Shown here: piece by piece, positions 18,493-49,432 of the stretch
Numbering within the stretch: position 1 is the first letter of the stretch
Layout of the letters: every line of letters begins with the position of its first letter
IMG/VR virus record: IMGVR_UViG_3300031566_000037
Location: 1-56,758 of that record
DNA: 56,758 bases
Source: a virus
Strand: one strand, 5' to 3'
The notes under the pieces: model-generated
Seen by the model: the letters and a program-made list of their open reading frames with translations, nothing else
Told to the model about the DNA's origin: nothing
Databases searched by the model: none
Position numbers and translations under genes: made by a program

Positions 18493-19329
18493 TTAGCCTC
18501 CTTTCGTGATATCATAATACTTGCAAGTTGCGGGAGCACATCCCTTGAATCCACTGTGTAATTCCCCGTCTTTCGGGCAGCGCCATTTCTCTCCTTCCCA
18601 ACGTAGACCCTTTAGCCATTCGCACCAGAGCGGTAATCCCGGACTCGTCCCCGGGCGAAAAGCATTCCACCATACCTGCCGACCACGCAGCCCGGCCTGC
18701 CAGCGTTCATAGGTTACGGGCACATCGAAATCCACCGTCTCATCGAAAACCACGCGCGTAGTCCCGGCCCTTTGAAACGCCAACCCCGGCGTGATCTTCC
18801 AATCGCCGATATAGGCCAGGCCATACCAAACCCGATAATATCGCCAGAGCTGTCCGCAGTGATGTTCCTCTGCGTCTTGCCGCTTCGCCGCGAGATCCAA
18901 TACGCGCCGGAGCGTCTTCCCGGCCCGGTCGTAATACTGGCGCCGAATGGCCATCCCCCATATCTCGGCTTCGCCGGTATAAAACATCGTCTCGCCCTTC
19001 ACCAGTAGATCCATGCAAAAATCTGAATAGTAGACATCACCTAAGAGGACAATGGTCTGTTCTGTCCCCCACAGATCGCGGGTAGAATATAGGGTTTCGC
19101 ACGTCCAGCGATGCCCGCGTGGCTCAAAAAACCTGGCGCGGATCCCGGCCTCTTCATATACCTCGGGCTGATGGGTAATCAACCAGGTGGGGATCCCGCG
19201 TGCAGCGCATTGATTTAATGTGCGCTGGACGAGCGGCGCGCCGTCGATCTCAAGCAATTGCTTGACAACCCCGCCGAAGCGCGTGGCCTGCCCGGCGCAG
19301 AGGATAACTGCTACAACCGGATCATTCAT
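18493..19329 (-). CDS. sugar-phosphate nucleotidyltransferase-like protein with Cys-rich C-terminus
   Basis: ATG at 19329 (ATGAATGA overlap with the upstream stop). VAVILCAGQATRFGGVVKQLLEIDGAPLV is the GxGtRx(n)K nucleotidyltransferase signature. Confidence 0.7.
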   Translation of the reverse strand: MNDPVVAVILCAGQATRFGGVVKQLLEIDGAPLVQRTLNQCAARGIPTWLITHQPEVYEEAGIRARFFEPRGHRWTCETLYSTRDLWGTEQTIVLLGDVYYSDFCMDLLVKGETMFYTGEAEIWGMAIRRQYYDRAGKTLRRVLDLAAKRQDAEEHHCGQLWRYYRVWYGLAYIGDWKITPGLAFQRAGTTRVVFDETVDFDVPVTYERWQAGLRGRQVWWNAFRPGTSPGLPLWCEWLKGLRWEGEKWRCPKDGELHSGFKGCAPATCKYYDITKGG

Positions 19330-20008
19330 CGGACTCGGCCCCCGTTCGATAATATGCATGTTTCGCCGAAAGGTTCTCGCGGATCCTGTTGCCCATTGCC
19401 AGGTCGACCGCATCAAATGTAACCCCCATCCGCGTGTGAATTTCAATGATCCAATCGAATCTGTCGTCAGTAAGGAGTCCCTTGGCGCCTGCCAATACGT
19501 CCAGCTCGCTGCCCTCCACATCGATTTTCACCAGGCCCGGCTTCCCGACCAAAGGATAATCCGCACGCTGACGTAATATGTCATCGAGGCTAACCGCATC
19601 TAATCCTACCTCGGCATCGTTGGCTTCGACTGGGCTCCATGGGGTTTGGCTGCGCTTTGCCTTCTGCCCTTCGCGACCGGCAAAGCATAGGTGCCGGCAG
19701 ACATTCGGGAGCAGCTGTGTATTCCAGCACAATAACCCGAATCGCAGAGCGTTGGCCTCTAAGGCGACAACCGATCGGCAGTGATGTGCGGCGATCATTG
19801 TGTGGTAACCCCAGCCCGCGCCGACATCAAGGAAAAACCCATATCGTTCTGACTCCAAGATCCCCACGATCGGCGCTTCGTAAGAGAGGTCTTTGAACCA
19901 GGAATTCCGGTTGGTGAAACTTATGTGTAGCGGCGATGGCCCGTGCGACCAAAAGTCGCCATATCTGTTCCGTCCATTCAGCAATTCAATGCGGGGGTTT
20001 ATAACCAT
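19322..20008 (-). CDS. FkbM-family methyltransferase
   Basis: Motifs FLDVGAGWGYHT...VVALEAN and LVKIDVEGSELDVLAGAK. Confidence 0.8.
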   Translation of the reverse strand: MVINPRIELLNGRNRYGDFWSHGPSPLHISFTNRNSWFKDLSYEAPIVGILESERYGFFLDVGAGWGYHTMIAAHHCRSVVALEANALRFGLLCWNTQLLPNVCRHLCFAGREGQKAKRSQTPWSPVEANDAEVGLDAVSLDDILRQRADYPLVGKPGLVKIDVEGSELDVLAGAKGLLTDDRFDWIIEIHTRMGVTFDAVDLAMGNRIRENLSAKHAYYRTGAESDE

Positions 20009-20988
20009 CGGCCCAGCACCTCCTTATATGCATTCATTGTCTGTCGCCCTGCGATTTCCCAGGTATAGTTCTGAAGCATCCGCATCTGGATCTGCGCTGT
20101 ATCCGTCGCAGTCGCCTTCAGACATCCCTGCATACTTTCCGGCGTGAACGGATCGATATAATAGACTGCATTCCCAAAGTACTCGCGGGCAGATCCGCGG
20201 TTAGTCGGCGCGACCGGCACCCCCAGCGCGGCGGCCTCTAACACGGCCAGGCCCGGGGTTTCATAGATGGATGGCTGCGCGACAAGCCTGGCGCCTTTCA
20301 TGTAGTGATAGATCCTCGGGGGCGGGATCCCCATAAAAAACTCTGTCCGCGCACGTCTCTTCTGCGCCATCTCCCAGCAGGCCCAATAATAATCATGTTC
20401 ATAATGACAGTCGCCTACCATCAAAATCGGCACATCGACATCGCGCATGGCACTGAGAAATCGGAATTGATTTTTCCGGCCTTCATTGCGCCCAACGATC
20501 AGGATGTAGTCTCGCATGTCGCAGAGTTCCCAATCCTCGAGTCCATTCCCATTTGTCTGCTCATTAATGTCGGGGGGCACAGCGTTTACCACGACTCGCA
20601 TCTTAGACTTCGGCACCTGGAACTCTCCGGAGATAAGCGCCGCCTCAGCATGGCTATTCGGGAGCAATAGGTCGGCTTCATGGTAAGCCCAATGGAACTG
20701 CCGCAGGTGATGTGCCATTCGCCGCTGCGGGTGATGCATCTCCTTGTAAGTCCAGTAAATCGTGGAGAGCACGATCTTTTTGCCGAGGCTACGAGCCTCG
20801 GCCATCCGCATCGGGGTCTTCCCATACACACCGAAAAAGTGAACTACCTTGGCCTTTGTCCAGTCATAGACAATTTCGACGCCTAACCGCTCAAGCCATT
20901 TGATCGTCTCGGCCTGCTGGGTTTCCATCCCGCCGAAACCGGCAGGTTTCCCGAAGCCAAAGCCCTGCCGGTGGATTGCGACGCGCAT
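19999..20988 (-). CDS. family 1/4 (GT-B fold) glycosyltransferase
   Basis: 329 aa. YETPGLAVLEAAALGVPVAPTNRGSAREYF matches the E-x7-E type motif. Confidence 0.85.
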   Translation of the reverse strand: MRVAIHRQGFGFGKPAGFGGMETQQAETIKWLERLGVEIVYDWTKAKVVHFFGVYGKTPMRMAEARSLGKKIVLSTIYWTYKEMHHPQRRMAHHLRQFHWAYHEADLLLPNSHAEAALISGEFQVPKSKMRVVVNAVPPDINEQTNGNGLEDWELCDMRDYILIVGRNEGRKNQFRFLSAMRDVDVPILMVGDCHYEHDYYWACWEMAQKRRARTEFFMGIPPPRIYHYMKGARLVAQPSIYETPGLAVLEAAALGVPVAPTNRGSAREYFGNAVYYIDPFTPESMQGCLKATATDTAQIQMRMLQNYTWEIAGRQTMNAYKEVLGRWL

Positions 20989-21307: not shown

Positions 21308-21579
21308 GTGATGCCTCGTGTCCCTTCCGGCTCTACAAACCATTCAAAGTTGCCTTCATTGATTTTTGCAAAATTCAGGTCACCATCTGGTTTGACGAAG
21401 AACGAAACGCGCCGCATATCTGCGGTTTTGTTCCGTGGATGCTTTGTCTGTTGCCCGTGGTAGATCACCAGGATCGCCTTGCCCATCCTGGCCGCCAGCG
21501 CACGCGCATGGTTCAACGCGCCTTGATAGCAATTTGTCCCCCCGGGTTGATTGTGCCAAGTGTAGATCTTCTGTGCCAT
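21301..21579 (-). CDS. hypothetical protein (92 aa)
   Basis: TGATG coupling to the endolysin stop. Confidence 0.5.
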   Translation of the reverse strand: MAQKIYTWHNQPGGTNCYQGALNHARALAARMGKAILVIYHGQQTKHPRNKTADMRRVSFFVKPDGDLNFAKINEGNFEWFVEPEGTRGITW

Positions 21580-22070
21580 CAGGTAGCCCCCAAGATTTCG
21601 TTTATCGCATCACCAATCATTGCGATCTTATAGCGTTCTAAAAAATCTGCAATTAGAAAATTCCCATCCTTGGTGACCACATCCCAAATCACCCGATCGG
21701 TGATCCACATATCCGCATGGCAATGCCCGCCCTTAGAACGGCTATACATACAAACGCGGCGGAAGTGCTTCCGCAGAAGCAGCCAGAGGGCGAATGTGTC
21801 CTGGCCCCAGGAGAGATCCACCGCCTCGCCACGGAGATGTGGACTATTTGCAGATCCGCCCTTCCGATCATTCCAGGCGCCGCAGCGGACGCCGGATGTC
21901 GGGAATAAAGGCTGGCCAGCCTCGAGGCGTGCATTTTCGAGTGCATCGATAGCAAGCTCTTGCATGTCGGCTCGTCCACAGGAATCGCGGCAGGACAGCT
22001 CGGAACGTGTGAAATGAGTGATGCGGCCATCGGTTGTAAGGTAATATCCTTGGAAGATTCGCGCGATCAT
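21579..22070 (-). CDS. Peptidase M15-family endolysin
   Basis: ATG at 22070 (ATGA overlap). SGVRCGAWNDRKGGSANSPHLRGEAVDL plus GGHCHAD supply the H-x6-D ... H zinc ligands. Confidence 0.8.
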   Translation of the reverse strand: MIARIFQGYYLTTDGRITHFTRSELSCRDSCGRADMQELAIDALENARLEAGQPLFPTSGVRCGAWNDRKGGSANSPHLRGEAVDLSWGQDTFALWLLLRKHFRRVCMYSRSKGGHCHADMWITDRVIWDVVTKDGNFLIADFLERYKIAMIGDAINEILGAT

Positions 22071-22573
22071 GTCAGGCTCGTTTCCAGCATCGCGTGGCGA
22101 CACTTAACCAGCATGTCGTCACAAGATGTGCCGCCGGTGGGGAACCAGTGCACCTCGATAATGTGATTCCCCGCGGCCCATCCGGTGATGTCATAAGCAT
22201 CGATAACCGCGAACCAGACCCAGCCGGAATAGTCTGCGCAATCGAGTGTCGATGTCCGCATGTTTTCAGCGCCGAGGTGATCAACTGTCAGCTGTAGATT
22301 CCCGGTGCCAATGTGGGGAACGTTGATTTTCTCCATGATTGTCAGGCGATCCCAAGGGCAGGCATCTGTAATGCGTATCGAGTAAAACCAGGATGGGTTA
22401 ACGATACTCGTGTATTCGTAATAGTCATGGAATTGTGCTTCATGTAACCGTTCCATGCCTTTGTAGAGACGCCAATTATTCAGAAACATCGTGTTGCATT
22501 TGATCGCCGAGATCAGCAGCGGTGGCGTGCTTGTCCAGAAATCCGTGGTGTCAGACCAATCGCCTATGGTCAT
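22067..22573 (-). CDS. tail fibre/receptor-binding-like paralog C (168 aa)
   Basis: N-terminus MTIGDWSDTTDFW is shared with the two upstream paralogs. ATGA coupling. Confidence 0.6.
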   Translation of the reverse strand: MTIGDWSDTTDFWTSTPPLLISAIKCNTMFLNNWRLYKGMERLHEAQFHDYYEYTSIVNPSWFYSIRITDACPWDRLTIMEKINVPHIGTGNLQLTVDHLGAENMRTSTLDCADYSGWVWFAVIDAYDITGWAAGNHIIEVHWFPTGGTSCDDMLVKCRHAMLETSLT

Positions 22574-30576: not shown

Positions 30577-31125
30577 TTACGTGGCCGGACAAGTCGATTG
30601 AATCTCTATGTTCCCAAAAGGCTCTGCAGGATGCAGAGACGCACAGTCGGTTGCCCGGAACCGAATCGGGAACTCCACAATCGACTCGCCGAACTCCATG
30701 GTAAACTCTGCGGTAATGAGCGCAGCCCACAGGTTGATATTCAACCACTTGCTGGCACAGGGGAACGCATGCTCAAACCGCACGCCATAATGCCTGCCAC
30801 AATCCGGCTTTTTGAACGGGATCTTACACGATGAAACATCGGGGATCCAATTCACTCCCAGGGCAGTCGCCAGATTATAGACGGTGATCTCATGGATGAG
30901 CACTTCCAACTCAAACTCTGCGCGGATTGGAATCGCAGCATCGAACTGACCATCCCGGCTACGGTAATGGTCAATGTATGTCGGGCGATAGGTAAAGCGT
31001 ATCACCCCACACTCGCCGAGATTCGTTTCCGCGCCACCGCTGTGGTTACAGACAAAGACCTGACCAGAATTGACCGTGTAATTCTCGTTGGTCGATTCTT
31101 CGGTGCAGGCGTCACAGATGGACAC
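30577..31125 (-). CDS. major tail (tube) protein candidate, Cys-rich
   Basis: GTG at 31125 lies 8 nt after GAGGAGG (track ORF extends to 31134). Assigned from position before the chaperones. 9 Cys in ~182 aa. Confidence 0.55.
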   Translation of the reverse strand: MSICDACTEESTNENYTVNSGQVFVCNHSGGAETNLGECGVIRFTYRPTYIDHYRSRDGQFDAAIPIRAEFELEVLIHEITVYNLATALGVNWIPDVSSCKIPFKKPDCGRHYGVRFEHAFPCASKWLNINLWAALITAEFTMEFGESIVEFPIRFRATDCASLHPAEPFGNIEIQSTCPAT

Positions 31126-31140
31126 TAATCTCACCTCCTC

Positions 31141-31635
31141 TCACAGGCAAAATTCCGGTTGCCCGGGGCGGCAGCATTGATACGCTACCTTGAACATATA
31201 TCGCGTGCTTTGGTGCCAGGCCTGAATAGTGGAATCGACGTCCGGCTCATCCAGGTCACCATCCCACCGCGAATTCATCACAATGATCTCATCTGAGGAT
31301 CCCGGGCTGCAGCAATCAAAGTCACACTTGGCACAGCCGAAGCGCCGCCGGATCCAGTAGAGGATGTCGCCCAAAACCAAGTCGGCGTTTTGGGTTTCAG
31401 AATAATCGATACGCACATATGGGGTAAAAGTGCAGAACACATGCTGTAGCGGCTCACTGACAAATCCGGGGATCGGAGCGCCAAAGGCTTTCCCGTAACA
31501 CAGGCATGCGCGGAAGGAGCCATTATCTGGTCGCGCCGCTCGCCGCAGGCCATCGGTTGTGTCCAGAATCGCCATCAGGTGCTGGCAGCCTAAAAGACAG
31601 TCGCACACATAAGAATAAAAAGCACTTATCCTCAT
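31141..31635 (-). CDS. tail completion/terminator candidate, very Cys-rich
   Basis: 164 aa with 13 Cys (CDC, CLC, CAKCDFDCC, QCC). ATGA coupling. Role assigned from position. Confidence 0.45.
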   Translation of the reverse strand: MRISAFYSYVCDCLLGCQHLMAILDTTDGLRRAARPDNGSFRACLCYGKAFGAPIPGFVSEPLQHVFCTFTPYVRIDYSETQNADLVLGDILYWIRRRFGCAKCDFDCCSPGSSDEIIVMNSRWDGDLDEPDVDSTIQAWHQSTRYMFKVAYQCCRPGQPEFCL

Positions 31636-33384: not shown

Positions 33385-33693
33385 CTAATATGCCTGCGCG
33401 GTGAAACCACGCAATGCTTCGATGATGTCCTCATCGACATCAAACACCTGAAACGAAAAACATGGCGGGATAGAGCAGTCCAGGGTCACCAGCCATGCCC
33501 CGAGTGCATCCGGGGTGAAGTCCGCGTAGTAGACTGCCGTCGCGCCGATCTCTACCGCACCCGGCGCCAGCGCCAGCACCAGCAAGGGATTGTAGACTTC
33601 AACCGTGATATTCCCGGCGATCCCCGTTGCCAAGGTTTTGTCCGCATTTAGGATCCGCATGAACACGCGGATTGGTTCGTTAATGATGTTCAT
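33385..33693 (-). CDS. Ig-like small virion protein (102 aa)
   Basis: Beta-sandwich pattern ITVEVYNP...AVYYADFTPDALGAWLVTL. Confidence 0.5.
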   Translation of the reverse strand: MNIINEPIRVFMRILNADKTLATGIAGNITVEVYNPLLVLALAPGAVEIGATAVYYADFTPDALGAWLVTLDCSIPPCFSFQVFDVDEDIIEALRGFTAQAY

Positions 33694-33983
33694 GCGGTAA
33701 TCGTCCCTTCCTGATATACAAAGAAACTCCCCCAGCCATAGACAGCGTCGGCAACGACGCTCACGGAAACTTTATGCATTCCGCCGCTGTCTGGTGTGGC
33801 GTTGTAATAATATTCTCCGCCCCCGATCTCGGTTGCATTCCCGGATGCGAGGATTGTGTTGTCCTCGCGCCGGACTTCGACCGCGACTGTTCTGCCCGTC
33901 AGCGGCCCGGTTTCATCAACCACCGCGATCGGGATCTGGATCTGTTTCCCGATCGGATGTAGCCCACACCAGCCTGTGCTCAT
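33690..33983 (-). CDS. Ig-like small virion protein (97 aa)
   Basis: Beta-sandwich pattern IQIPIAVVDETGPLTGRTVAVEV...GEYYYNATPDSGGMHKVSV. Confidence 0.5.
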   Translation of the reverse strand: MSTGWCGLHPIGKQIQIPIAVVDETGPLTGRTVAVEVRREDNTILASGNATEIGGGEYYYNATPDSGGMHKVSVSVVADAVYGWGSFFVYQEGTITA

Positions 33984-35420: not shown

Positions 35421-35855
35421 CTACAGGATCCCGTAAGTATAAGATCCATAATCAGCATCGATCCGCATGGCCCCAGGCCCGGCTGGACGGATGAAATATC
35501 CACGCGCGGTAAACGTAATGGCCTTCCCACCGCTGGCCCGCCGCACCACAAATTCCGCATTGGCCGGCAGAATCATTGCCTGCACATAGGTGCGCTTCCC
35601 GTGTTCGTAAAACCCCTGCACGTAGTCGAATTCAAAAAAGGTGCCGCCCTGTTGATATGCCAATACCAATTCTGTGCTGGCCTGATCGCCACTCGGGAAA
35701 TCCAGATCTTGAATCGCGATACAATAGTGGCTCGGCGGCCTCACGATAATATGCCAGTTATCATCGGCCCAGGTCATTGGTACACGATACCAGGATTGAA
35801 CCGGCTTTCCAAAAGCAACGGCGCGCCGGAATTTATTGATCATCGGATAGCCCAT
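35421..35855 (-). CDS. hypothetical virion-module protein (144 aa)
   Basis: RBS GAGGAGGAG. Confidence 0.5.
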   Translation of the reverse strand: MGYPMINKFRRAVAFGKPVQSWYRVPMTWADDNWHIIVRPPSHYCIAIQDLDFPSGDQASTELVLAYQQGGTFFEFDYVQGFYEHGKRTYVQAMILPANAEFVVRRASGGKAITFTARGYFIRPAGPGAMRIDADYGSYTYGIL

Positions 35856-36943
35856 GTCTTCTCCTCCTCGCGGACATTTGTATTAACTCTCTCCGCAATC
35901 GCCTGACGAACACGAGCAATGATCTCGCTGGATGAAATCGCTCGCATACACTCCAGCGTCGTACATGTCGGTCTCTTGTCAAAGCAGGGACACTTGGGTA
36001 GCCCCAGGGATCCCGCCTTCCAAATTGGAAAGGCATATCGATAATGCGATAAGCGTAATCGTGGCGGCCAGCTTGAGTATAGATCTATATGAGGGGTTTC
36101 AACCGCTTCCGCCAAATGACACAACCCGGTATCCGGAGAGATCACGGCATCGCATTCGGCGACGATCGCACATAGCTGCCGGATATTGAGCTGCCCCGTG
36201 AGATTCAGATCGGCTGGCCAATCCAGGAAGTCGTTGTACGTTAAAACCGCCGACATATTCTCTTCATTCAGGCGATGCGCCACTTCAATGACTTGCGCCT
36301 CGGGGAATGTCCGCAGATGGATCGTGCTGCTTTTCGCAGCGATAGCCACGCGCGGCGCTGGGACTTCAGCGAGAGTCTGCCTGGCCCATTGGCGTTCGGC
36401 CTCGGTCAAGACGGGCACACAGAACCGATACTCCTTGGGGCGGCTCCCGAGGAGATAATCAAAATAGATATCGATCCGATCGGTGGTATATTTCGCATGA
36501 TGCCGTTCAGCGAATCCCCGCAAATCGATTGCATCAAAAGATCCCCGCATGCTGGAGATTTGATAGGTGCAGGTAAGCCATGGCACGTTTTCAAATAGCT
36601 CGCGGTGATAAGAATTAGTCGCCCAGGCAAAGCGCAGATGTGGGTGTGCCTCATCCAACGCTTTGATCGCTGCCGAGATAATCACCAGATCGCCGAGACC
36701 AATGTCGCGGACAATAACAACCTCTGTCCCGGGGCGGAGTTTCTTCAAGTGATCCGATGGCCAGAGCCGGAAGTCTTTGTAGGGGTCTCGGAAATATCCC
36801 GTCCGCAATAGCCAGTTATAATCGTGCTCACATTTAACACCGAAGATCTCGCCGCGCAGAGCGTGGTAGGTGTTGCTCATGGGGACGGTGCCCTGCCATG
36901 AAACGGAACGCTTCAGGATCAGGTGCCCGCAATACTTCGGCAT
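35840..36943 (-). CDS. family 9 glycosyltransferase (heptosyltransferase-like)
   Basis: VVIVRDIGLGDLVIISAAIKALDEAHPHLRFAW matches the GT9 N-terminal motif. ISPDTGLCHLAEAVETPHIDLY matches the DsG..HlAaA motif. Confidence 0.8.
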   Translation of the reverse strand: MPKYCGHLILKRSVSWQGTVPMSNTYHALRGEIFGVKCEHDYNWLLRTGYFRDPYKDFRLWPSDHLKKLRPGTEVVIVRDIGLGDLVIISAAIKALDEAHPHLRFAWATNSYHRELFENVPWLTCTYQISSMRGSFDAIDLRGFAERHHAKYTTDRIDIYFDYLLGSRPKEYRFCVPVLTEAERQWARQTLAEVPAPRVAIAAKSSTIHLRTFPEAQVIEVAHRLNEENMSAVLTYNDFLDWPADLNLTGQLNIRQLCAIVAECDAVISPDTGLCHLAEAVETPHIDLYSSWPPRLRLSHYRYAFPIWKAGSLGLPKCPCFDKRPTCTTLECMRAISSSEIIARVRQAIAERVNTNVREEEKTWAIR

Positions 36944-37025: not shown

Positions 37026-38057
37026 CTAGTAGGTGCTGGACTCGACGCAGCACTCATCCCTGGTCGTCAGGTGATCAAGCAATACTGCGGCATCGGTGTT
37101 GATGATGCCGGTATCGAACGCGATCCTGAAGATATGGAACGTCCGTGAATTCACGCCATCCCGCTGACGCTCGTAGTTGATATCATACTGAATACCAAGC
37201 ACGAGGTTCTTCGGGTCTGTCAGAAACATGAACGTCCCCGCCTGGCCATCTTCATAATGCCCGCAGGCATTCGCCAGATCGGTCGGCAGGAGCGGGATCG
37301 TTTCCATCGGAGTGGTCATCCAGGTTGCGGGAGCCTCCCCCGTGATAACCTTGTCCCCGAGGGCAGTCCCCCGCTTCTGCAGAATGTCTGCCCAATCCTG
37401 GAACACGTCGTCGGCCATGAAGAAGCGGAGTTTCTTTTTGTCCCGACGCCACTTGGTCGGGAGCTGCTTCATCATCTGCCCGAAATGACAGATGTCCAAG
37501 CAACAATTGGGGAAGGTCGGCGTCACAATGTGAGCCGCCTTGAGCTGCTTGTACCATCCATCGAAAAGGTGAAATACGCTGGTGTCTACATCCGCATGGA
37601 CATAGGAATGATCGATGTTGGCCATAAGCGCCATGATCTCCAACTCGTTTGCGAGCTGGGATCCGACCATCTTTAATACCTGCTTCTCCAGCGCATCGCC
37701 GGTGAGATTGTCTGCGAGCATGTCGTCGCAGATCGGGATGACGGCCTTGAATTTGCGCGCGGTCAGTTTGAAGCCTGTGGCCGACATGCCGCCGGTATCG
37801 ACGTAGTCACCACAGTTGTCCGGGCGCAGCATACCTTTGTTAATATCGATAAACCGCACCCACTTCTCATTGGTCGTCATCCGCTCGACTCTGACCTTGC
37901 TCCACAGCGTTGATTCATCGACGATGAAATCAATCAGCCGGTCAGCTTCCTCGGGCTGGATGATCGACGGCGCGCTCGAGCTTTGAATAGCCTTCTTAAA
38001 GTCGAACGTGTCCTTTGCTTCAACTCCAAGAAGCTGCATGGCGCGTGCCTTGCTCAC
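37026..38057 (-). CDS. major capsid protein (HK97-fold type)
   Basis: 343 aa. GTG start 6 nt after AAGGAGG. Assigned from position after the protease/scaffold gene and from an N-terminal region typical of major capsid proteins. Confidence 0.85.
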   Translation of the reverse strand: MSKARAMQLLGVEAKDTFDFKKAIQSSSAPSIIQPEEADRLIDFIVDESTLWSKVRVERMTTNEKWVRFIDINKGMLRPDNCGDYVDTGGMSATGFKLTARKFKAVIPICDDMLADNLTGDALEKQVLKMVGSQLANELEIMALMANIDHSYVHADVDTSVFHLFDGWYKQLKAAHIVTPTFPNCCLDICHFGQMMKQLPTKWRRDKKKLRFFMADDVFQDWADILQKRGTALGDKVITGEAPATWMTTPMETIPLLPTDLANACGHYEDGQAGTFMFLTDPKNLVLGIQYDINYERQRDGVNSRTFHIFRIAFDTGIINTDAAVLLDHLTTRDECCVESSTY

Positions 38058-38128: not shown

Positions 38129-39904
38129 CTACGTCTTCTTGCTGCCCTCTTCCTCCTCGACCGGAATATATCCGCCCAGCATAGTCGAGTATCTCATCCC
38201 GGGCTTGCCCTCGGCGCCCTTGGCACCATGCATTCTCTCCTGCATGGAAACGCCACGCGTGTGCTCGATCGCCTGCACGCGATGATCCATGCCCCGAACC
38301 ATGTTCAGGACAAGATCCATCTTGGCCGAAAGCGCTTTCTCGCCTTCGGTCTCATCCGCCCCGGCGCCACCGTCGCCAGCGCCTTCAGCGCCAGCCCCGG
38401 CATCGCCTTCCCCAGCGGCCCCGGCACCCTCCCCGGCACCGCCTTCACCAGCGCCTCCGGCGCCTTCAGCGGGCTTCTCGCCAGCGGGCTTGCCCTCCGG
38501 CTTGCCTGCAGCACCAGCAGCGCCCTGTGCGCCGCCTGTGCCCTCAACGGGGGACTTGCCCGTTCCAGGCGATGCCTGCTCCTTGGGCGGCTCCTGCGCG
38601 GCCCCAGCAGCGGAAGCCTCCGCGCTGGCCATGACGGCCGAGGTATTGGCATTAACCCGCGCGATAATGAGGTTAAACTGCGTGGCCACGGCGTTGGCAT
38701 CGGCCAACGCCTCCGGGGTGACCGGCTGCAGCTCATCCTGCTTCTTGCCGAACATCTGCATGAATTCGGCGACCACCTGCTTTGCTACGGCTTTGACGTC
38801 CATCGGCCTCCTCCCTCCTTGATTGAGCCAGAACATCCTCTCAGCATCTGTAGTATCCGCTATCTTTTGCCCATGCCCATTCGATCCGCTTTCGGATTCT
38901 ATAACAAGCGAACCCGTCCCGTTTTTGTATCCGGCAAAATCCTTTCTGATCGCACCCTTGATCACAAGCGAGAGATCTTTAATGTGAACATCCATCAGCT
39001 GGAAAATCCCCTTGCTGCTGGTAGTGCGGGGGATAATAGGGATCAGCGTCCATACTCCCCCGATCGAGAATCCGTTGAGTTCGCCATTTTGTACCTTGGC
39101 CCAGGCAACATCGGAACACCTCACCCCGGCGACGCCAGCGCCTGGCATGAAGAATTTCGACCCCTCCGGCGCCTGGAAGCATTCAACGAGATCGCCCACG
39201 CCGCCCCATAGGATGTGATTGATACCAATGCCCCTTGTCCGGCCCGCAGCATATTCAATCATGAATTCATGGATCGCCTTCCCGATCTCATATTCGCTCA
39301 GGAAATGCCCCTGCGCATCGGTAGCCCACGGCACCAGGAATTCTCCATAGACAACCTTTTGCGAAGCCATGAGGGGATCCTGGGCGAACTTGAAGAATAT
39401 CTTCCCGTCGATTTTCTGCGGCTTGTAGGCATCGCTCTGGAGCCGTGTCTTATTGGCGCGGATAAACTGCTCTGCCGCCAACTTGGTAAAGATGGAATCA
39501 TCGAACCAGACGGTAATTAGATCCCAGGTCTCGGTGCCCTCATTGAACCCAAACTCCAGCCGGACGCCTTCGCTGTCTCTGAAATTAACCATGGCGGTCT
39601 TATCATAGGAATACACATTCGGCTCGAGTTCAATAGAAAACCAATTCGTCTTAGCGCCAACCAGCGCCACGATTTCCCGGGGATCGATGATATCTTTTTC
39701 CCGTAACGTCCAGCTGCCGGCAGCATCTCTGGTGTATTTCTGCTTGACCGCTGCCCAGGCGGCAATGCGTGCCCCCTCCTCGCGCACGGATTCTTCGCCG
39801 GTCAGGGTTTGGTAGGTTGAATTGAAGATCCGGATCCAGATCGCCTGTGCGCCTTTCGGCAGGTTCTTAATCGTGTCCGGGGGATTTGATAGGAGATACG
39901 GCAT
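38129..39904 (-). CDS. ChaB-domain / XkdF-like prohead protease / scaffold fusion protein
   Basis: ATG at 39904 preceded by GGAGAAG. ChaB-like segment: IKNLPKGAQAIWIRIFN...ARIAAWAAVKQKY. XkdF-like segment: EFLVPWATDAQGHFLSEYEIGKAIHEFM...GELNGFSIGG. Then a Gly/Ala/Glu low-complexity region and a helical C-terminus. Confidence 0.75.
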   Translation of the reverse strand: MPYLLSNPPDTIKNLPKGAQAIWIRIFNSTYQTLTGEESVREEGARIAAWAAVKQKYTRDAAGSWTLREKDIIDPREIVALVGAKTNWFSIELEPNVYSYDKTAMVNFRDSEGVRLEFGFNEGTETWDLITVWFDDSIFTKLAAEQFIRANKTRLQSDAYKPQKIDGKIFFKFAQDPLMASQKVVYGEFLVPWATDAQGHFLSEYEIGKAIHEFMIEYAAGRTRGIGINHILWGGVGDLVECFQAPEGSKFFMPGAGVAGVRCSDVAWAKVQNGELNGFSIGGVWTLIPIIPRTTSSKGIFQLMDVHIKDLSLVIKGAIRKDFAGYKNGTGSLVIESESGSNGHGQKIADTTDAERMFWLNQGGRRPMDVKAVAKQVVAEFMQMFGKKQDELQPVTPEALADANAVATQFNLIIARVNANTSAVMASAEASAAGAAQEPPKEQASPGTGKSPVEGTGGAQGAAGAAGKPEGKPAGEKPAEGAGGAGEGGAGEGAGAAGEGDAGAGAEGAGDGGAGADETEGEKALSAKMDLVLNMVRGMDHRVQAIEHTRGVSMQERMHGAKGAEGKPGMRYSTMLGGYIPVEEEEGSKKT

Positions 39905-40139
39905 CGCGCTTCTTCTCCATGGCATCTAGCGTGCCCATGATCTGATTCAACTGTGAATTGAGCTCCCGGGCGAGCGCCGTTAATTCCATAAGGGTCTTGC
40001 GGACTTTCTGTTCTTGGTCAACGGGGATGGCGATTTCCATTCTAAGGGGTTGTGCCTTCATCCCCCCAGCATCCCGCAAGTCCATTACGTGCGGGTTTAA
40101 AATTCGTGGTCGATCTCCGTTGCCCTGCCCGTTCGCCAT
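39867..40139 (-). CDS. hypothetical protein (90 aa)
   Basis: RBS ACGGAGG. Overlaps the downstream start by 38 nt. Confidence 0.45.
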   Translation of the reverse strand: MANGQGNGDRPRILNPHVMDLRDAGGMKAQPLRMEIAIPVDQEQKVRKTLMELTALARELNSQLNQIMGTLDAMEKKRDAVSPIKSPGHD

Positions 40140-42723: not shown

Positions 42724-44277
42724 TTATTTCCCAAGCGAAGTGGCTTTAAGCCCACCGCGCGTCCTCTTGCCACAGGCGCTGGTGAAAAACCAAGATGCCA
42801 TCAGGCGATCGCCTGTATGCTCAACGGGATCGAAGCGTAACATATCATCTATCCATTCTGCCGATTGATGGTTCCTGGGGATCCGCCACATACGGTTTTC
42901 GAAGTCGACAGACATCGCGCGAACGCCCAGGGTAGGATCCGCCTTGTTCTTGCCCGTAGTAAAAGGATGCAACCGGATGGCCTTGGCGAATCGTTTAATT
43001 TCATCAAGCGCCATGGAGCCTTCGGATGGCGTGTTTTTGATGATGGCTCTAAAGATCTCATCGGCGCCTCTTAGGAACTGCAACAGATAATCCTGTGCCG
43101 AATTGTTTTCCACCTCAAACAGCACAGGCTTAAAACGATCCTGAATCTGACAGAAATTCTTGATGATGTCAACAAGTCCCATCCGGCCTGCGATGATATT
43201 GAGCACCACTTTTGTCCCATGCGGATCCACGCCGCCGATAAAAAACACCGTCTCATGTGCGCCGCGCTTCTTCTTGACCGCCAGGTCAACGCCGACATAG
43301 ACCTGCAGTTCATTATCGTCATAGCGGGAGACAAAATGCCTGCCTTCGGCCTCGGCCAGTTCAACGCATGTCTCAATCGCTGCCCGGCTGAAATCATCAC
43401 TCCCGCGTTCCTTGTCGGGGATATTCTTCATCGATCGTGCATACTCGATCGAGCTGACCTCGGCGAGTCTTTCCTTGCGGCGCCACTCCGGCCAACCACA
43501 GACCTCCCCCGATGGCATGATTTCAAGATCCGGCCAGAGATCATCGTCTGCATCATAGCGTTCGACGTGATAATTTGTATTCGCGGCAGCCCAATGCATC
43601 GCGTCTTCTGCGTGCCAGGCATTGCCGATCATCCAGAGGCGCGCCAGCGCGGTAAGCCTGGAGATCACCGTGTTCTTGACATATTCAATCACCCGCTTGC
43701 GCTGGCCCCGGGTTAGAGTGTTTTCGAAGTCGAGGATATCATCTAAGATAGCCAGGTCGAGGCGCGCTCCCATGATGTTCCCGTTCACCCCGACCGCCTC
43801 TACCGTATAATCCTTATTCGACAGATCCTTTCGCTCAACAACGATGTGACTGTCCTGCCAGCCCATGACTCGCCCGCGCCTGCGTTCAGGACGCACGTGT
43901 GGAAACACCGCCTGATAGCGTGCGTTATAGCCAATCGTCTGGCGGATCACGCCGAGAAATTTATGCGCCTGGCCAGCCGTATTGGAAACCAGCGCTGCGC
44001 GGATGTTGGTGTTCTTGCCGATCTCCCAGCTCAGGCGGCACACGGAAATTTGCATCGACTTCCCGTGCTCAACCGGAGCGAAAATAACCAGCCGCCGATA
44101 TTTATTGCAGAGATCCTGCCACTCGTCATGAAGGGGTTGTGCCTTCCAGCCGAAAACGTACTCGCCGAAGGTCGCCGGATCCTGCCTGGCTACCTGGATC
44201 GTGTCGCGTTCGTAAGCGCCGAGGTCGGCCTCCAGTAGATCCTGATCGTGCTCAATTTTCCCGGGGGAATCTGTCAT
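42724..44277 (-). CDS. terL: terminase large subunit
   Basis: ATG at 44277 (ATGA overlap). Walker A-like motif FAPVEHGKS. C-terminal nuclease-like region. Confidence 0.9.
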   Translation of the reverse strand: MTDSPGKIEHDQDLLEADLGAYERDTIQVARQDPATFGEYVFGWKAQPLHDEWQDLCNKYRRLVIFAPVEHGKSMQISVCRLSWEIGKNTNIRAALVSNTAGQAHKFLGVIRQTIGYNARYQAVFPHVRPERRRGRVMGWQDSHIVVERKDLSNKDYTVEAVGVNGNIMGARLDLAILDDILDFENTLTRGQRKRVIEYVKNTVISRLTALARLWMIGNAWHAEDAMHWAAANTNYHVERYDADDDLWPDLEIMPSGEVCGWPEWRRKERLAEVSSIEYARSMKNIPDKERGSDDFSRAAIETCVELAEAEGRHFVSRYDDNELQVYVGVDLAVKKKRGAHETVFFIGGVDPHGTKVVLNIIAGRMGLVDIIKNFCQIQDRFKPVLFEVENNSAQDYLLQFLRGADEIFRAIIKNTPSEGSMALDEIKRFAKAIRLHPFTTGKNKADPTLGVRAMSVDFENRMWRIPRNHQSAEWIDDMLRFDPVEHTGDRLMASWFFTSACGKRTRGGLKATSLGK

Positions 44278-45269
44278 CGCCCAACGTACCCTAACCCCTC
44301 GAGCCGTTTTAAAACCTCCGGATCCGCAGTCGGCCACGGCAGGGACGGCCCGGGTTGTTTAATGGAAAACCGGCGCAGAATCGTATTGAGCATCATGTGG
44401 TGATTGGCAGGTTCATAGACTTCACGAACGGCCAGCTGGATCGGCAATGGTGTCCGTGCGATGAGAGGAACCCGGATGAGTTCGGGAAACATCCCATAGG
44501 CATGAATACAAAAGCCCCGCTCGCCTAAGCCTTCACCGTGGTCGCCGGTAACGAAGATCTCGGCATCAGGAAAGGCGTCAAAGAGTTCAGGCATCTTCGA
44601 ATCGAGAAACCGGATCGCCCCATCATAAGCAGCGATGTAACACGCCGGATGGTTGGCGATGCGTTTGCCGAAATACCGCGAGCCCTCCGCTGTCCACTCC
44701 TGGCTATCCTCGCCGCACCACTCGATCAGCGCGCCGATCTTGTCGAGGATCTTCATGCCCGGCATCGCCATCGGCCCCCAGCGCTTCTTGTGGGTTTGCC
44801 AGAGAGCATCCCCGACAAAGCGCTGGTGGTTGCCCCAGGGCTGATACATCGCATGCGTCTCCTGCAGGTGCAGCACCCCGAAAAACTCCGGGCGGCCTCG
44901 ATGCGCAGCGATAAAGGCATCGATCATCTGATTCGCCGTTGGCCTCTTGCCGCGCCGGTGGTACCACGCAGGCCAGGATTTGAAGTCGAAAACGCTCGTG
45001 GCCATGCGCTGGCCTGCCGGTGTCGCGTTGCCGCTGTAGAATGATGTGTGGATCTTGTTGCGGGAGATCGTCAGTGCATAGTTGGCGATCCGCTGGAACG
45101 TCCCCTTAGTCGCCGAGGCGTTAGACTTAAAATCGTTCCACATCAAACCCTTGGCTCCGGTTACGACGGAATCCAAGAACGGAGTCGTCTCGCGATCGTA
45201 CCCATAACAATGAATATGATCGCTCCGCAAACACTCGATCATGACAAGAATAACCTGTGTTTTATTCAT
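44274..45269 (-). CDS. alkaline-phosphatase-superfamily (sulfatase-like) hydrolase/transferase
   Basis: 331 aa. Motifs VILVMIECLRSDHIHCYGYD and IFVTGDHGEGLGERG. No CxPxR formylglycine motif seen. ATGA overlaps at both ends. Confidence 0.7.
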   Translation of the reverse strand: MNKTQVILVMIECLRSDHIHCYGYDRETTPFLDSVVTGAKGLMWNDFKSNASATKGTFQRIANYALTISRNKIHTSFYSGNATPAGQRMATSVFDFKSWPAWYHRRGKRPTANQMIDAFIAAHRGRPEFFGVLHLQETHAMYQPWGNHQRFVGDALWQTHKKRWGPMAMPGMKILDKIGALIEWCGEDSQEWTAEGSRYFGKRIANHPACYIAAYDGAIRFLDSKMPELFDAFPDAEIFVTGDHGEGLGERGFCIHAYGMFPELIRVPLIARTPLPIQLAVREVYEPANHHMMLNTILRRFSIKQPGPSLPWPTADPEVLKRLEGLGYVGR

Positions 45270-46126
45270 CTGAGATCCTCTATCGATGGCACTTCAAAAT
45301 CACAACCCTCTTCATCTGCACCATCGTCTCCGGCGTCATTATCAGCCGCTCGGTCAAGTCCTGTGGCTGCGAAACTAACATCAAGGTGTCCGCCGTTAGA
45401 TCCGGGATTGTCAGGATCGGGATCCCCCACAGGCTCTTCGGCGACCTCCTCGGCGGTAGCAGGGATGGCCTGGGTATCGCCCCCGGGCGGGACTTCAAAA
45501 AGGACTCCATGAAGGTCTCCTTCCTGCGGCGCATCCTTCACGCCACGCAATGCCATTTGCGTCCGCGCATCGGTTACGGTCGTTACTTGCTCCCGGCCCA
45601 GCAGCGTGCGGAGTTGTCGCAGGTGTTTGCGCACTGCCGGAATGTTGTCCGCCGGCACCTCCGCGAATTCCCCCTTGCCGCCTCCAGGCGACGCGTTGTT
45701 CGTTGTCTGATTGATAAAGGCAAAAACCGGCGACTGCTCGGTCTTGCCGAAACCCAAGATCATCGCCTGCAACCGGATCGCCTCGAGCACCCGCGCGTCA
45801 GCCGCTGTGCGTGCATTGTAGTCGGGTTCGGTCACTAACTGCGGTTTCTCCTCCTTGCCCTGGCGCACCTCCCGAACCTTCACGGCCTTGTCGGCGATCC
45901 TATTTTGCCGAGTAATTACCGTCCCGATCCTCGTGAGCATCTCGCCCACGGCACAGCCGTCAATGATCAGGAGATCGGTATAGCGCTTATAAATCATCTT
46001 CAGATCATTAACCACCGTCGCCCGGGTTACCTTCACCTCCTCGGCAATCTGCGTTGGGTTCGCCCCCCGCGCGGCAAGGCTCAAAACCTGCTTTTCACGT
46101 TCCCAGCGTTCCTGCCTATCCGACAT
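45266..46126 (-). CDS. putative terminase small subunit (HTH, acidic tail)
   Basis: ATG at 46126 lies 8 nt after GGAGGG. LSLAARGANPTQIAEEVKVTRATVVNDL is a helix-turn-helix. Assigned from position upstream of terL. Confidence 0.5.
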   Translation of the reverse strand: MSDRQERWEREKQVLSLAARGANPTQIAEEVKVTRATVVNDLKMIYKRYTDLLIIDGCAVGEMLTRIGTVITRQNRIADKAVKVREVRQGKEEKPQLVTEPDYNARTAADARVLEAIRLQAMILGFGKTEQSPVFAFINQTTNNASPGGGKGEFAEVPADNIPAVRKHLRQLRTLLGREQVTTVTDARTQMALRGVKDAPQEGDLHGVLFEVPPGGDTQAIPATAEEVAEEPVGDPDPDNPGSNGGHLDVSFAATGLDRAADNDAGDDGADEEGCDFEVPSIEDLR

Positions 46127-46805
46127 CCGTATCGCCCTCCGCAAGACCGACTGCCCCCAGGTACCCTCGCACCATTACCATCAGCGCCTTGCCCCGGGAA
46201 ACGCCTCCGGCTAACGCGCTGGCCCGCGTCAAGGCCTCCTCGAGCAGCGCCGGATCGTCCTCCACCACGAAGGAGACGATCTTCGGTCGCGTCCGCCCCG
46301 CCTCCTCCTCCTCGGCATCCAGGTCGACCTCTAAGGCATCGGATACCTTCGAAAGTTCAAGCGCATCCCGGAGCTCCGCCTCGCTGTAGGGGAGATGCGT
46401 CTCGAGGTCGTCGATCGATAGATCCGTCGACAGATCCTGAACCAGCTTCGCAAACAATGCTTGCACCGACTGCCCCTTGAGTTCGTTCAGGTTGATCGAT
46501 AGGATCTTCGCTTCACGATCGCCCAGGTCGACCACGCTGCAGGGGACGGCCGTGTAGTCTAACTCCTGCGCCGCCATCCAGCGATGATAGCCACCGAGGA
46601 TCTCCCAGCGCCCATCGTGCGGACGCACCACCAGCGGCTCTACAAAGCCCCGGGCTTTTATGTAAGCCCGGAGTTTCGCATATGTCTCCGCGTCCATGCG
46701 ATTCGGATTCCATGGATTAGGTACCAAATCGCCGATCGGAATTTCCCGAATATCCATCTTGCCCTCGCTCTCGCCCCGAGCCATGTCCACCACGGCCAGA
46801 GCCAT
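46116..46805 (-). CDS. ParB-like nuclease domain protein
   Basis: IPIGDLVPNPWNPNRMD...PLVV...ILGGYHRWMAAQ matches the ParB N-terminal domain. The true start may be 46757 (GAGGG RBS). Confidence 0.85.
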   Translation of the reverse strand: MALAVVDMARGESEGKMDIREIPIGDLVPNPWNPNRMDAETYAKLRAYIKARGFVEPLVVRPHDGRWEILGGYHRWMAAQELDYTAVPCSVVDLGDREAKILSINLNELKGQSVQALFAKLVQDLSTDLSIDDLETHLPYSEAELRDALELSKVSDALEVDLDAEEEEAGRTRPKIVSFVVEDDPALLEEALTRASALAGGVSRGKALMVMVRGYLGAVGLAEGDTDVG

Positions 46806-48972: not shown

Positions 48973-49432
48973 GTGAGTGGACAGAGTGGTGCCCTGGTGC
49001 TGCTCGGTGCGGGCGAAGTGGGCTGCGGAGAGTGGAATTTGCACTCACATTTCCACAGAAGTGGGCTGCGGAGAGTCGTATGTGGGTGCTTTTTCAGTCG
49101 GAAGTGGGGCGATAGTGGCAGGGTCAGTGATGCTCCCGGGGTGATGGTGGAGCCATGGTGGGCTGCGCGGAGTCGATGTGACACTTGATTTGAGGGCAAA
49201 GTGGGCTGCGAAGACTGTGATTATGACTCACATTCCACCGTCAGTGGGCTGGAATAGTGGGTGTTATCACCCAGGACACGACTGATGCATGACTGTGTGT
49301 GTCCGCCAGGCGGCGCCGGTGGGACGCCGTCCCAGGATATGACTCATTATTACACTCATGTTTCACTCGAAGTGGGCTGCGCTGACTCAAACGTGAGTGC
49401 TTTTTCAGCCGAAAGTGGGCTGCCCGCCCGGG
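48973..49432 (+). repeat. Phased array of ~18-bp direct repeats (iteron-like), core GTGGGCTGCGgAGaGTsG
   Basis: Core starts at 48973 (degenerate), 49018, 49061, 49104, 49158, 49201, 49244, (49319 degenerate), 49372 and 49415. The spacings are mostly exactly 43 bp. Confidence 0.8.
49257..49279. repeat. 23-bp repeat GTGGGTGTTATCACCCAGGACAC, copy 1
   Basis: 22 of 23 bases identical to 49915..49937. Contains the inverted repeat GGGTG-n4-CACCC. Confidence 0.8.

Follow-up and report, generated by a model that had tools for sequence, protein, structure and literature searches.

The gene examined here encodes a 331-residue enzyme of the alkaline-phosphatase/sulfatase superfamily with a predicted threonine nucleophile. 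It lies between a helix-turn-helix (HTH) gene and the large-terminase gene (terL) of the phage genome IMG/VR IMGVR_UViG_3300031566_000037. The window, by which we mean the whole 56,758-nucleotide stretch that was analyzed, corresponds to approximately one complete genome of this phage (~56.7 kb). We give roughly even odds (about 0.5) to the proposal that the enzyme is a soluble phospho(di)ester transferase or hydrolase of a phage glycan-decoration pathway, with the glycan most likely carried by virion proteins. The observations behind this proposal are the fold, the catalytic residues, the solubility, the selection on the gene and its variable synteny with glycosylation genes; from these we infer the type of reaction, a nucleotide-activated donor and a virion glycan as the target.

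The open reading frame (ORF) begins with ATG, its translation starts MNKTQVILVMIECLRSDHIHCYGYD, and it contains the motifs VMIECLRSDHIHCYGYD and GDHGEGLGERG. The stop codon of the upstream ORF overlaps the enzyme start as ATGA (the DNA reads ...ctcagATGAataaa at 45269-45266), and the enzyme stop overlaps the in-frame ATG of the large-terminase ORF (...gggcgATGAcag at 44277-44274). A preliminary description, made from the letters of the sequence, had reported these coordinates, both motifs and both ATGA overlaps, and all were correct when sequence and translation were re-read. The gene and the residues on which the argument depends are as follows.

44274-45269, minus strand: the enzyme, predicted to be soluble and of the alkaline-phosphatase/sulfatase superfamily, with a putative Thr nucleophile (ORF, Pfam, AlphaFold2 (AF2), Foldseek, hydropathy and the ratio of non-synonymous to synonymous substitution rates, dN/dS).
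45234-45236, minus strand: Glu12 codon, predicted metal ligand ending strand beta1, aligned with MCR-1 E246 (14/14 invariant; profile search).
45108-45110, minus strand: Thr54 codon, predicted nucleophile and first residue of helix 54-70 (profile, homologue column and DSSP on the model).
44853-44870, minus strand: His134...Glu137-Thr138-His139 (LHLQETH), with H134, E137 and H139 invariant in the clade and H139 kept in 106/107 distant homologues.
44502-44543, minus strand: Asp243-His244 (GDHGE) and His256, predicted metal ligands, aligned with MCR-1 DHGESLGENGVYLH.
44274-44318, minus strand: conserved C-terminal tail PEVLKRLEGLGYVGR with an L-x-x-LGY motif, from the clade alignment and common to a large cellular branch.

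Assignment to the superfamily, which the preliminary description had proposed, is borne out by several lines of evidence. Pfam Sulfatase (PF00884) matches the enzyme at E 1.3e-18 (67.7 bits against a cut-off of 25), and the AF2 model, built on a 14-sequence alignment, has the alkaline-phosphatase fold with its metal ligands intact (predicted local distance difference test score, pLDDT, 83.9; predicted template-modelling score, pTM, 0.86). Foldseek returned 263 PDB matches at E<=1e-3, those listed being members of the superfamily. The top matches were EptC, MCR-1, EptA and LtaS, mixed with S1 sulfatases and phosphonate monoester hydrolases (E 3e-12 to 3e-10; TM-scores 0.5-0.64). Because transferases and sulfatases are mixed at similar scores, the fold alone does not pick a subfamily. 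The structure search that had been suggested as a check placed the enzyme in the superfamily and left the subfamily to be read from the sequence.

A profile of the clade searched against all PDB sequences found MCR-1 as its best match (E 1.1e-12), pairing E12 with E246, T54 with T285, D243-H244 with D465-H466 and H256 with H478. In the model, E12 comes directly after strand 4-11, T54 is the first residue of helix 54-70, and D243-H244 come after strand 237-242. Across the 14 sequences, whose identity goes as low as 31%, residues E12, T54, H134, E137, H139, D243, H244 and H256 show little or no variation, and D243, H244 and H256 are kept in 106/107, 107/107 and 98/107 distant homologues, respectively. 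The nucleophile, whose identification the preliminary description had called for, is predicted to be Thr54, which aligns with T285, the residue on which the profile alignment to MCR-1 ends. Among the 107 distant homologues the Thr54 column holds Thr in 87 and Ser in 17, while Thr57, invariant in the clade, is not conserved there; Thr54 is therefore preferred over Thr57. The first metal ligand is Glu in 14/14 sequences of the phage clade versus Asp in 102/107 distant homologues, and Glu at this position is the transferase-type residue (EptA, MCR-1, LtaS). The His134/His139 pair probably corresponds to the H390/H395 region of MCR-1.

Features of formylglycine sulfatases were also sought. The preliminary description had noted that the CxPxR motif was missing, and a regular-expression search indeed found no C/S-x-P-x-R motif in the enzyme or in its 13 closest homologues (P0001-P0013). 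The N-terminal Asp-Asp calcium ligands of the S1 type are not present, since the position reads Glu12-Cys13, invariant or nearly so in the clade. Pfam annotation of the called genes over ~45 kb, which did not cover every ORF, showed no family of formylglycine-generating enzymes (FGE) or anaerobic sulfatase-maturating enzymes (anSME), a role that a host enzyme could also serve. As judged from the aligned residues, the active-site layout is of the type found in phosphoethanolamine transferases and LtaS, not that of formylglycine sulfatases. The best NCBIfam matches are of the EptA/EptB type and lie far below their cut-offs (EptA NF007160, 30.1 bits vs 561; EptB NF008593, 29.3 bits vs 493), and no NCBIfam family passed its cut-off for the clade or for ten distant relatives.

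The highest Kyte-Doolittle score over 19 residues is 1.2, with no transmembrane segment and no signal peptide in the enzyme. Only 11 residues precede the metal-binding Glu12, and hydrophobic extensions are likewise absent from the homologues in the clade. The enzyme is predicted to be cytoplasmic and soluble. Comparison with a 98%-identical relative (L011) showed 50 synonymous and 8 non-synonymous differences (dN/dS 0.04), and the gene is under strong purifying selection; its divergence follows that of the neighboring genes within the sub-lineage.

The clade is small. Among 5.8 billion clustered proteins it comprises only P0001-P0011 (38-98% identity; 310-357 residues) and two cellular proteins at ~30% identity. 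The closer of these, P0012 (L003, 10001-11008; 31% identity), has Ala at position 54 and keeps Thr57, and it may be inactive or have a shifted nucleophile. Its gene adjoins that of ribosomal protein L25, on a contig that also carries an N_methyl/SBP_bac_10 gene, which we take to be found mainly in Planctomycetota. Scans of metagenome and genome collections found, among the matches listed, generic relatives at 22-28% identity only and no close family members, and neither the enzyme nor the upstream ORF had a tblastn match in 50,697 GenBank phage records. A pattern scan of IMG/VR returned the same phage and three remote sulfatases only; matches in BFVD were superfamily members of giant viruses, with no phage protein; two weak, unannotated PHROGs families match the enzyme; and PADLOC gave no likeness to a defense system (e.g., PglZ).

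The next relatives are cellular proteins of 440-580 residues annotated as 'arylsulfatase A-like', from Acidobacteriota, Planctomycetota, Omnitrophota, haloarchaea and others, which among the matches listed are the nearest outside the phage clade (22-28% identity). They share with the enzyme a Thr/Ser nucleophile column, the lack of CxPxR, the DHGE...H pattern and the L-x-x-LGY motif, which stands at the extreme C terminus of most of the 107 distant homologues; their genes often lie beside glycosyltransferase (GT) genes and tandem paralogues. They differ in an Asp first ligand, a T-x-P-S-H-like motif, 120-170 additional residues and, in many, an N-terminal signal or anchor. We had considered the LEGLGYVGR tail as a phage-specific docking peptide and rejected this idea, the motif being general in the cellular family.

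Comparison with characterized enzymes shows both the kinship and the distance. The catalytic domains of MCR-1, MCR-2, ICR-Mc, EptA and EptC have the same fold and a similar size (~320-340 residues); MCR-1 (5k4p) and EptC (6a82) are the top Foldseek matches, MCR-1 being the best PDB profile match as well; and the Glu, Thr, Asp-His and His zinc site of EptA/MCR is matched by E12, T54, D243/H244 and H256. EptA and MCR, however, carry an N-terminal five-helix membrane domain and are periplasmic, whereas the phage enzyme lacks this domain and is predicted to be cytoplasmic, which makes a lipid donor implausible. Identity to the phosphoethanolamine transferases is 14-17%, with scores of ~30 bits against NCBIfam cut-offs of 490-660, and an L-x-x-LGY tail is not known to us from that family. 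The phosphoglycerol transferases LtaS and LtaP belong to the same Glu/Thr class and share the fold (Foldseek E 5e-11 to 3e-10; TM-scores 0.51-0.55), but LtaS is membrane-anchored, extracellular, ~100 residues larger and uses phosphatidylglycerol as donor, and PDB searches gave no sequence-level match of LtaS to the enzyme. The S1 sulfatases (arylsulfatases, choline and carbohydrate sulfatases) have PF00884, the fold and the GDHGE motif in common with the enzyme, but they are 450-550 residues long with a C-terminal subdomain that the 331-residue enzyme does not have.

The link to glycan decoration comes from gene context in relatives of the phage and from genes in the window itself. The preliminary description had raised a connection to the glycosyltransferase genes; of the options it listed, this is the one the evidence favors. 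Genes for glycosyltransferases or sugar activation adjoin the enzyme gene in three independent contexts: (i) in L175, where the order is GT4, enzyme, two small ORFs and HTH gene, and the GT4 gene overlaps the enzyme gene and is 39.5% identical to the GT4 of the window; (ii) in L179/L180, where a nucleotidyltransferase gene precedes and overlaps that of the enzyme and is 50% identical to its counterpart in the window; and (iii) in L005, where the order is B12 radical-SAM, GT2, Phosphodiest, methyltransferase, GT1, methyltransferase, enzyme, MTase_24 and sulfotransferase, with no terminase gene. Because the recurring partners (GT4, nucleotidyltransferase) have homologues elsewhere in the window, we propose that the enzyme belongs to a glycan pathway. 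The corresponding genes of the window are listed below.

35840-36943, minus strand: GT9 glycosyltransferase, heptosyltransferase-like, directly after the major capsid gene at 37026-38057 (Pfam Glyco_transf_9, E 2e-13).
19999-20988, minus strand: GT4/GT1 glycosyltransferase (Pfam Glycos_transf_1, E 7e-17).
19322-20008, minus strand: FkbM-family methyltransferase, between the GT4 and nucleotidyltransferase genes (Pfam Methyltransf_21, E 5.4e-9; NCBIfam fkbM_fam, E 2.1e-15, above cut-off).
18493-19329, minus strand: MobA-like nucleotidyltransferase, 278 residues, with a gene model taken from homologues (Pfam NTP_transf_3, E 5.3e-10).

The GT9 gene stands directly after the capsid gene in all four relatives that have the enzyme next to terL (L001, L006, L007, L010); its product matches NCBIfam heptosyltransferase I at E 1.6e-16, below the cut-off of that model. 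The nucleotidyltransferase shows weak likeness only, to MobA, IspD and inositol-phosphate cytidylyltransferase. In coding direction, a Peptidase_M15_3 (endolysin-type) gene at 21579-22103 (minus strand) precedes the GT4, FkbM and nucleotidyltransferase genes by ~600 nt, which puts the glycan genes beside lysis, at the far end of the late region. Among the immediate neighbors of 99 distant cellular homologues there were 6 GT2 genes, 5 GT1 genes and ~10 tandem superfamily paralogues, compared with 2 GT1 genes, and no GT2 or Sulfatase among the top 25 listed, for 99 control ORFs at least 4.5 kb away in the same loci.

There is precedent for such an arrangement. Virions can be glycosylated by phage-encoded glycosyltransferases (Freeman et al. 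2023, as cited in PMC12582341). The tailed archaeal virus DNTV-1 has a sulfatase-superfamily gene, ORF120, next to the glycosyltransferase ORFs 121 and 122, whose substrates are not assigned (bioRxiv 10.1101/2025.02.15.638363); this likeness is one of gene context. In mycobacteriophages the modules for capsid and tail glycosylation have glycosyltransferase genes among or next to structural genes, much like GT9 after the capsid gene of the window, and the papers searched describe no alkaline-phosphatase-superfamily partner there.

We therefore propose the following scheme for a catalytically competent cytoplasmic metallo-enzyme. Glu12, Asp243 and His244 would bind metal, and His134, His139 and His256 would complete the site. 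By analogy with the phosphoethanolamine transferases and LtaS, the enzyme would attack a phosphodiester or phosphoanhydride and form a covalent phospho-Thr54 intermediate, from which the phospho-group would pass either to a hydroxyl acceptor (transferase) or to water (phosphodiesterase). Since the enzyme has no membrane domain, its donor would be soluble rather than a membrane phospholipid, perhaps a nucleotide-activated compound that the MobA-like nucleotidyltransferase of the phage supplies. In function the enzyme would be grouped with the GT9 next to the capsid gene, the GT4, the FkbM methyltransferase and the nucleotidyltransferase. Its gene lies in the structural operon and would thus be expressed late. 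A decorated glycan on the proteins of the virion, made late in infection, is the product we consider most likely; the position between the HTH gene and terL would be a lineage-specific insertion that provides this late co-expression with the structural genes.

Several points weigh against this proposal. Structural likeness to the Thr-type transferases is about equal to that to true sulfatases (TM-scores 0.52-0.64), and the sequence and structure comparisons do not tell a transferase from a hydrolase. The link to glycan genes rests on only three short contigs of relatives that are 41-48% identical; in the window, 23 kb lie between the enzyme gene and the GT4, FkbM and nucleotidyltransferase genes. 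Among the neighbors of the cellular homologues, glycosyltransferases are modestly enriched, as counted with ~25%-identical proteins and crude ORF picking. The capsid protein has no obvious Ser/Thr-rich tail, and phages of this group are not known to us to bear a glycan. We also know of no characterized precedent for a soluble cytoplasmic enzyme of the Glu/Thr type: the characterized relatives known to us, such as EptA, MCR-1, LtaS and OpgB, all act outside the cytoplasm from a membrane anchor and transfer phospholipid head-groups to polymers of the envelope.

A possible but rather unlikely alternative is that the enzyme serves host takeover as a soluble phosphodiesterase or pyrophosphatase like the nucleotide pyrophosphatases/phosphodiesterases (NPP), destroying host nucleotide-sugars, lipid-carrier-linked precursors or other phosphodiester metabolites. 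Host envelope synthesis would then be stopped, or precursors freed for phage glycans, and nothing would be moved onto the virion. The predicted cytoplasmic, soluble state of the enzyme fits this explanation, as does the wider cellular branch, with its T-x-P-S-H-like nucleophile motif and precomputed Phosphodiest (PF01663) matches. In L005 the enzyme is paired with a second gene, of the Phosphodiest family, and the nucleotidyltransferase neighbor in L179/L180 is compatible with nucleotide-linked substrates. The enzyme of the window, however, has no Pfam Phosphodiest match, and the motif in its nucleophile region is T-K-G-T-F, not T-x-P-x-H. The Glu that serves as first ligand throughout the clade is that of the transferases and replaces the NPP/sulfatase-type Asp, and placement in the late operon suits the building of virions better than an early takeover.

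The genes that surround the enzyme gene bear on two further alternatives.

42724-44277, minus strand: large terminase (TerL), 517 residues from the ATG at 44277 (phrog_38, E 7.5e-53).
45266-46126, minus strand: ORF286, a 286-residue HTH protein, for which gene callers start at the ATG at 46126 (weak HTH Pfam hits).
46116-46805, minus strand: ParB-N domain protein, overlapping the ORF286 start by 11 nt (Pfam ParB_N, E 5.6e-14; phrog_723, E 1.2e-29).

A gene for a D12 adenine methyltransferase also lies upstream, beyond ORF286. This DNA-centered neighborhood (D12 methyltransferase, ParB_N, HTH protein, TerL) is what speaks for an enzyme of DNA modification, which together with the glycosyltransferases, the methyltransferase and the nucleotidyltransferase would build or trim a phosphate-linked hypermodification on phage DNA; phage glycosyltransferases do glycosylate DNA bases in the T-even phages. 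We consider it very unlikely. The called genes include no thymidylate-synthase-like hydroxymethylase, DNA kinase or other hypermodification gene, and the early region has AAA_24, DUF669, HTH_36, DUF932, PDDEXK_1 and RusA only. Moreover, GT9 directly follows the capsid gene, and the L005 cluster (sulfotransferase, GT2, GT1) resembles polysaccharide chemistry.

The preliminary description had held the gene to be an obligate, stoichiometrically coupled member of the packaging operon. In a packaging role, the enzyme would be a partner of the terminase, acting on DNA ends or on the terminase itself, with the overlaps enforcing matched expression. The label of large terminase given to the downstream gene was right. 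Besides the ATGA overlaps at both gene ends, a packaging role could draw on the weak Shine-Dalgarno sequence ahead of terL in the window, on the divergence of the enzyme, which tracks that of its neighbors within the sub-lineage, and on the order HTH gene - enzyme - terL, which is kept with tight overlaps in four relatives at 67-98% identity (L001, L006, L007/L011, L010). However, gene calls over the 19.6 kb around the enzyme show overlaps at 15 of the 26 same-strand junctions, and in seven cases the overlap is exactly 4 nt. Overlap between adjacent genes is the usual state in this genome, and one of 4 nt is not distinctive; in L005 the enzyme homologue likewise overlaps methyltransferase genes.

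Synteny argues further against coupling to the terminase. In L182/L183, whose TerL and portal are 64% and 54% identical to those of the window, the HTH homologue is followed, after a gap of 75 nt, by terL with a GGAG of its own, and no sulfatase-like gene lies between the two. A synteny survey had been suggested as a check; in the relatives compared, the enzyme gene is upstream of the HTH gene in L175 and L176 (in L176, enzyme then HTH gene) and far from any terminase in L005 and L179. The order in L177 is a 98-residue ORF, the enzyme and terL; here TerL is 72% identical to that of the window and the enzyme only 44%, which suggests independent acquisition or replacement at the same junction. 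In L178 the 98-residue ORF is followed by the enzyme and a second paralogue. No nuclease or DNA-binding feature was found in the enzyme, nor any PADLOC/PglZ similarity. We thus regard a packaging role as highly improbable and, on the synteny, already largely refuted. The comparison of gene orders indicates instead that the enzyme is a stable resident of one sub-lineage and a movable accessory gene, not a core packaging component, and that the terS/terL junction in this phage group is likely an insertion hot spot that tolerates accessory genes. Streptomyces phage Manuel (L186, NC_048685.1, 661-5647), only distantly related in its TerL, offers a further case of genes without a packaging role within a packaging module: its terL and portal genes are separated by genes annotated as lysin A and endonuclease VII.

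Other features were seen in these relatives. The sulfatase-like genes of L178 are in tandem (430-1449 and 1747-2193), and the second is 38% identical to the enzyme of the window over 146 residues. The conserved 98-residue ORF directly upstream of the enzyme (L177, 114-410; L178, 137-433) has CxxC, CVVC and a C-terminal HWHxHxRFH; no homologue of it was found in the window. A resemblance to HIT-like (histidine triad) proteins, seen by eye, had no Pfam or PDB support and is not relied on.

Whether the upstream gene is a small terminase also matters to the packaging argument. ORF286 has an N-terminal LuxR/GerE-like HTH, a conserved part of ~210 residues (the HTH and helices) and a variable acidic tail. 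All members of its family (8/8) match phrog_645, labelled 'Rnase E' (best E 3.6e-6), and the small-terminase (TerS) PHROGs match marginally, through the HTH (E 0.012-0.022). PDB profile matches were to the HTH domains of NarL and DesR only, and hhalign gave no match to the gene that precedes the Youna2 terminase. Because the AF2 model is poor (pLDDT 47), its Foldseek result is meaningless. A hidden Markov model search of 1.84 billion representatives found ~5 full-length relatives and then HTH-only matches. A homologue lies directly upstream of terL in L182/L183, and ORF286 is a plausible small terminase by position only.

A true sulfatase or sulfo-ester enzyme that acts without formylglycine on sulfated host or virion glycans is scarcely credible: Pfam places the enzyme in Sulfatase, S1 sulfatases match the model as well as the transferases do, and a weak sulfotransferase-like gene lies two genes downstream in L005, but the enzyme has Thr at the nucleophile position with no C/S-x-P-x-R motif, Glu rather than Asp-Asp as first metal ligand and no FGE or anSME gene among the annotated genes of the window, and to our knowledge all characterized S1 sulfatases require formylglycine for efficient hydrolysis of sulfate esters.

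As to the phage itself, other samples (L007, L185) contain it as contigs of 56,772 and 56,661 nt with different breakpoints, one of them inside the nucleotidyltransferase gene; the differing breakpoints are consistent with a complete genome of ~56.7 kb that is circular or circularly permuted. Searches of the window for tRNA genes and Rfam families were negative. TerL is at most 24% identical to any of the 50,697 phage records (tblastn to annotated phage terminases), and the phage appears to represent a lineage without a close cultured relative. After terL come a portal gene (Pfam Phage_portal, E 5.8e-25) and a gene for a Mu-F-like head protein.

An iteron-like cluster lies at 49008-49424 (plus strand). 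The ~1 kb around it, which separates the late operon from the other genes, has only short ORFs listed. The cluster has six copies of AGTGGGCTGCG (at most one mismatch) in three pairs, each spaced 43 nt. Over the whole window AGTGGGCTGCG has 9 matches against 1.35 expected, a number reached in 0 of 100 shuffles. Such repeats might serve as an origin of replication, as a ParB site or, for the HTH protein, as a pac site.

Three further observations concern structural genes and their surroundings. At 38129-39925 (minus strand) a fusion protein of 591-598 residues combines an N-terminal ChaB, an S78-type prohead protease and a long, low-complexity C terminus rich in Ala, Gly and Glu, which is probably a scaffold; the fusion is kept in all relatives. 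Two adjacent small ORFs of 102 and 97 residues at 33385-33983 (minus strand) have the similar motifs ...AVYYADFTPDALGAW... and ...GEYYYNATPDSGGMH... and may be duplicated immunoglobulin-like decoration or fibre domains. In the tail region, at 30577-31635 (minus strand), consecutive ORFs of 185 and 164 residues are unusually cysteine-rich.

For annotation, the lesson is that a gene does not belong to the packaging machine just because its start and stop codons overlap those of terminase genes beside it. The enzyme is of a known kind, the Glu/Thr type of the alkaline-phosphatase superfamily, and it is the form that is unusual: stand-alone, cytoplasmic and phage-borne, with an LGY tail and linked to glycosyltransferase and nucleotidyltransferase genes. 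A stand-alone cytoplasmic phage version with such links would imply a donor chemistry different from that of its membrane-anchored relatives. A further step, which we put forward tentatively and hold to be rather unlikely, is that the enzyme is the first soluble cytoplasmic transferase of the Glu/Thr type and uses a nucleotide-activated donor (e.g., a cytidine diphosphate (CDP)-alcohol) to place a phospho-substituent, such as phosphoethanolamine, phosphoglycerol or phosphocholine, onto capsid or tail glycans. We are aware of no report of phages whose virion glycans are decorated with phosphodiesters. If true, this would mean that phages can carry a glycan coat with charged phosphodiester groups, and the large cellular 'LGY-tail' family, now annotated only as 'arylsulfatase A-like', would gain a function.

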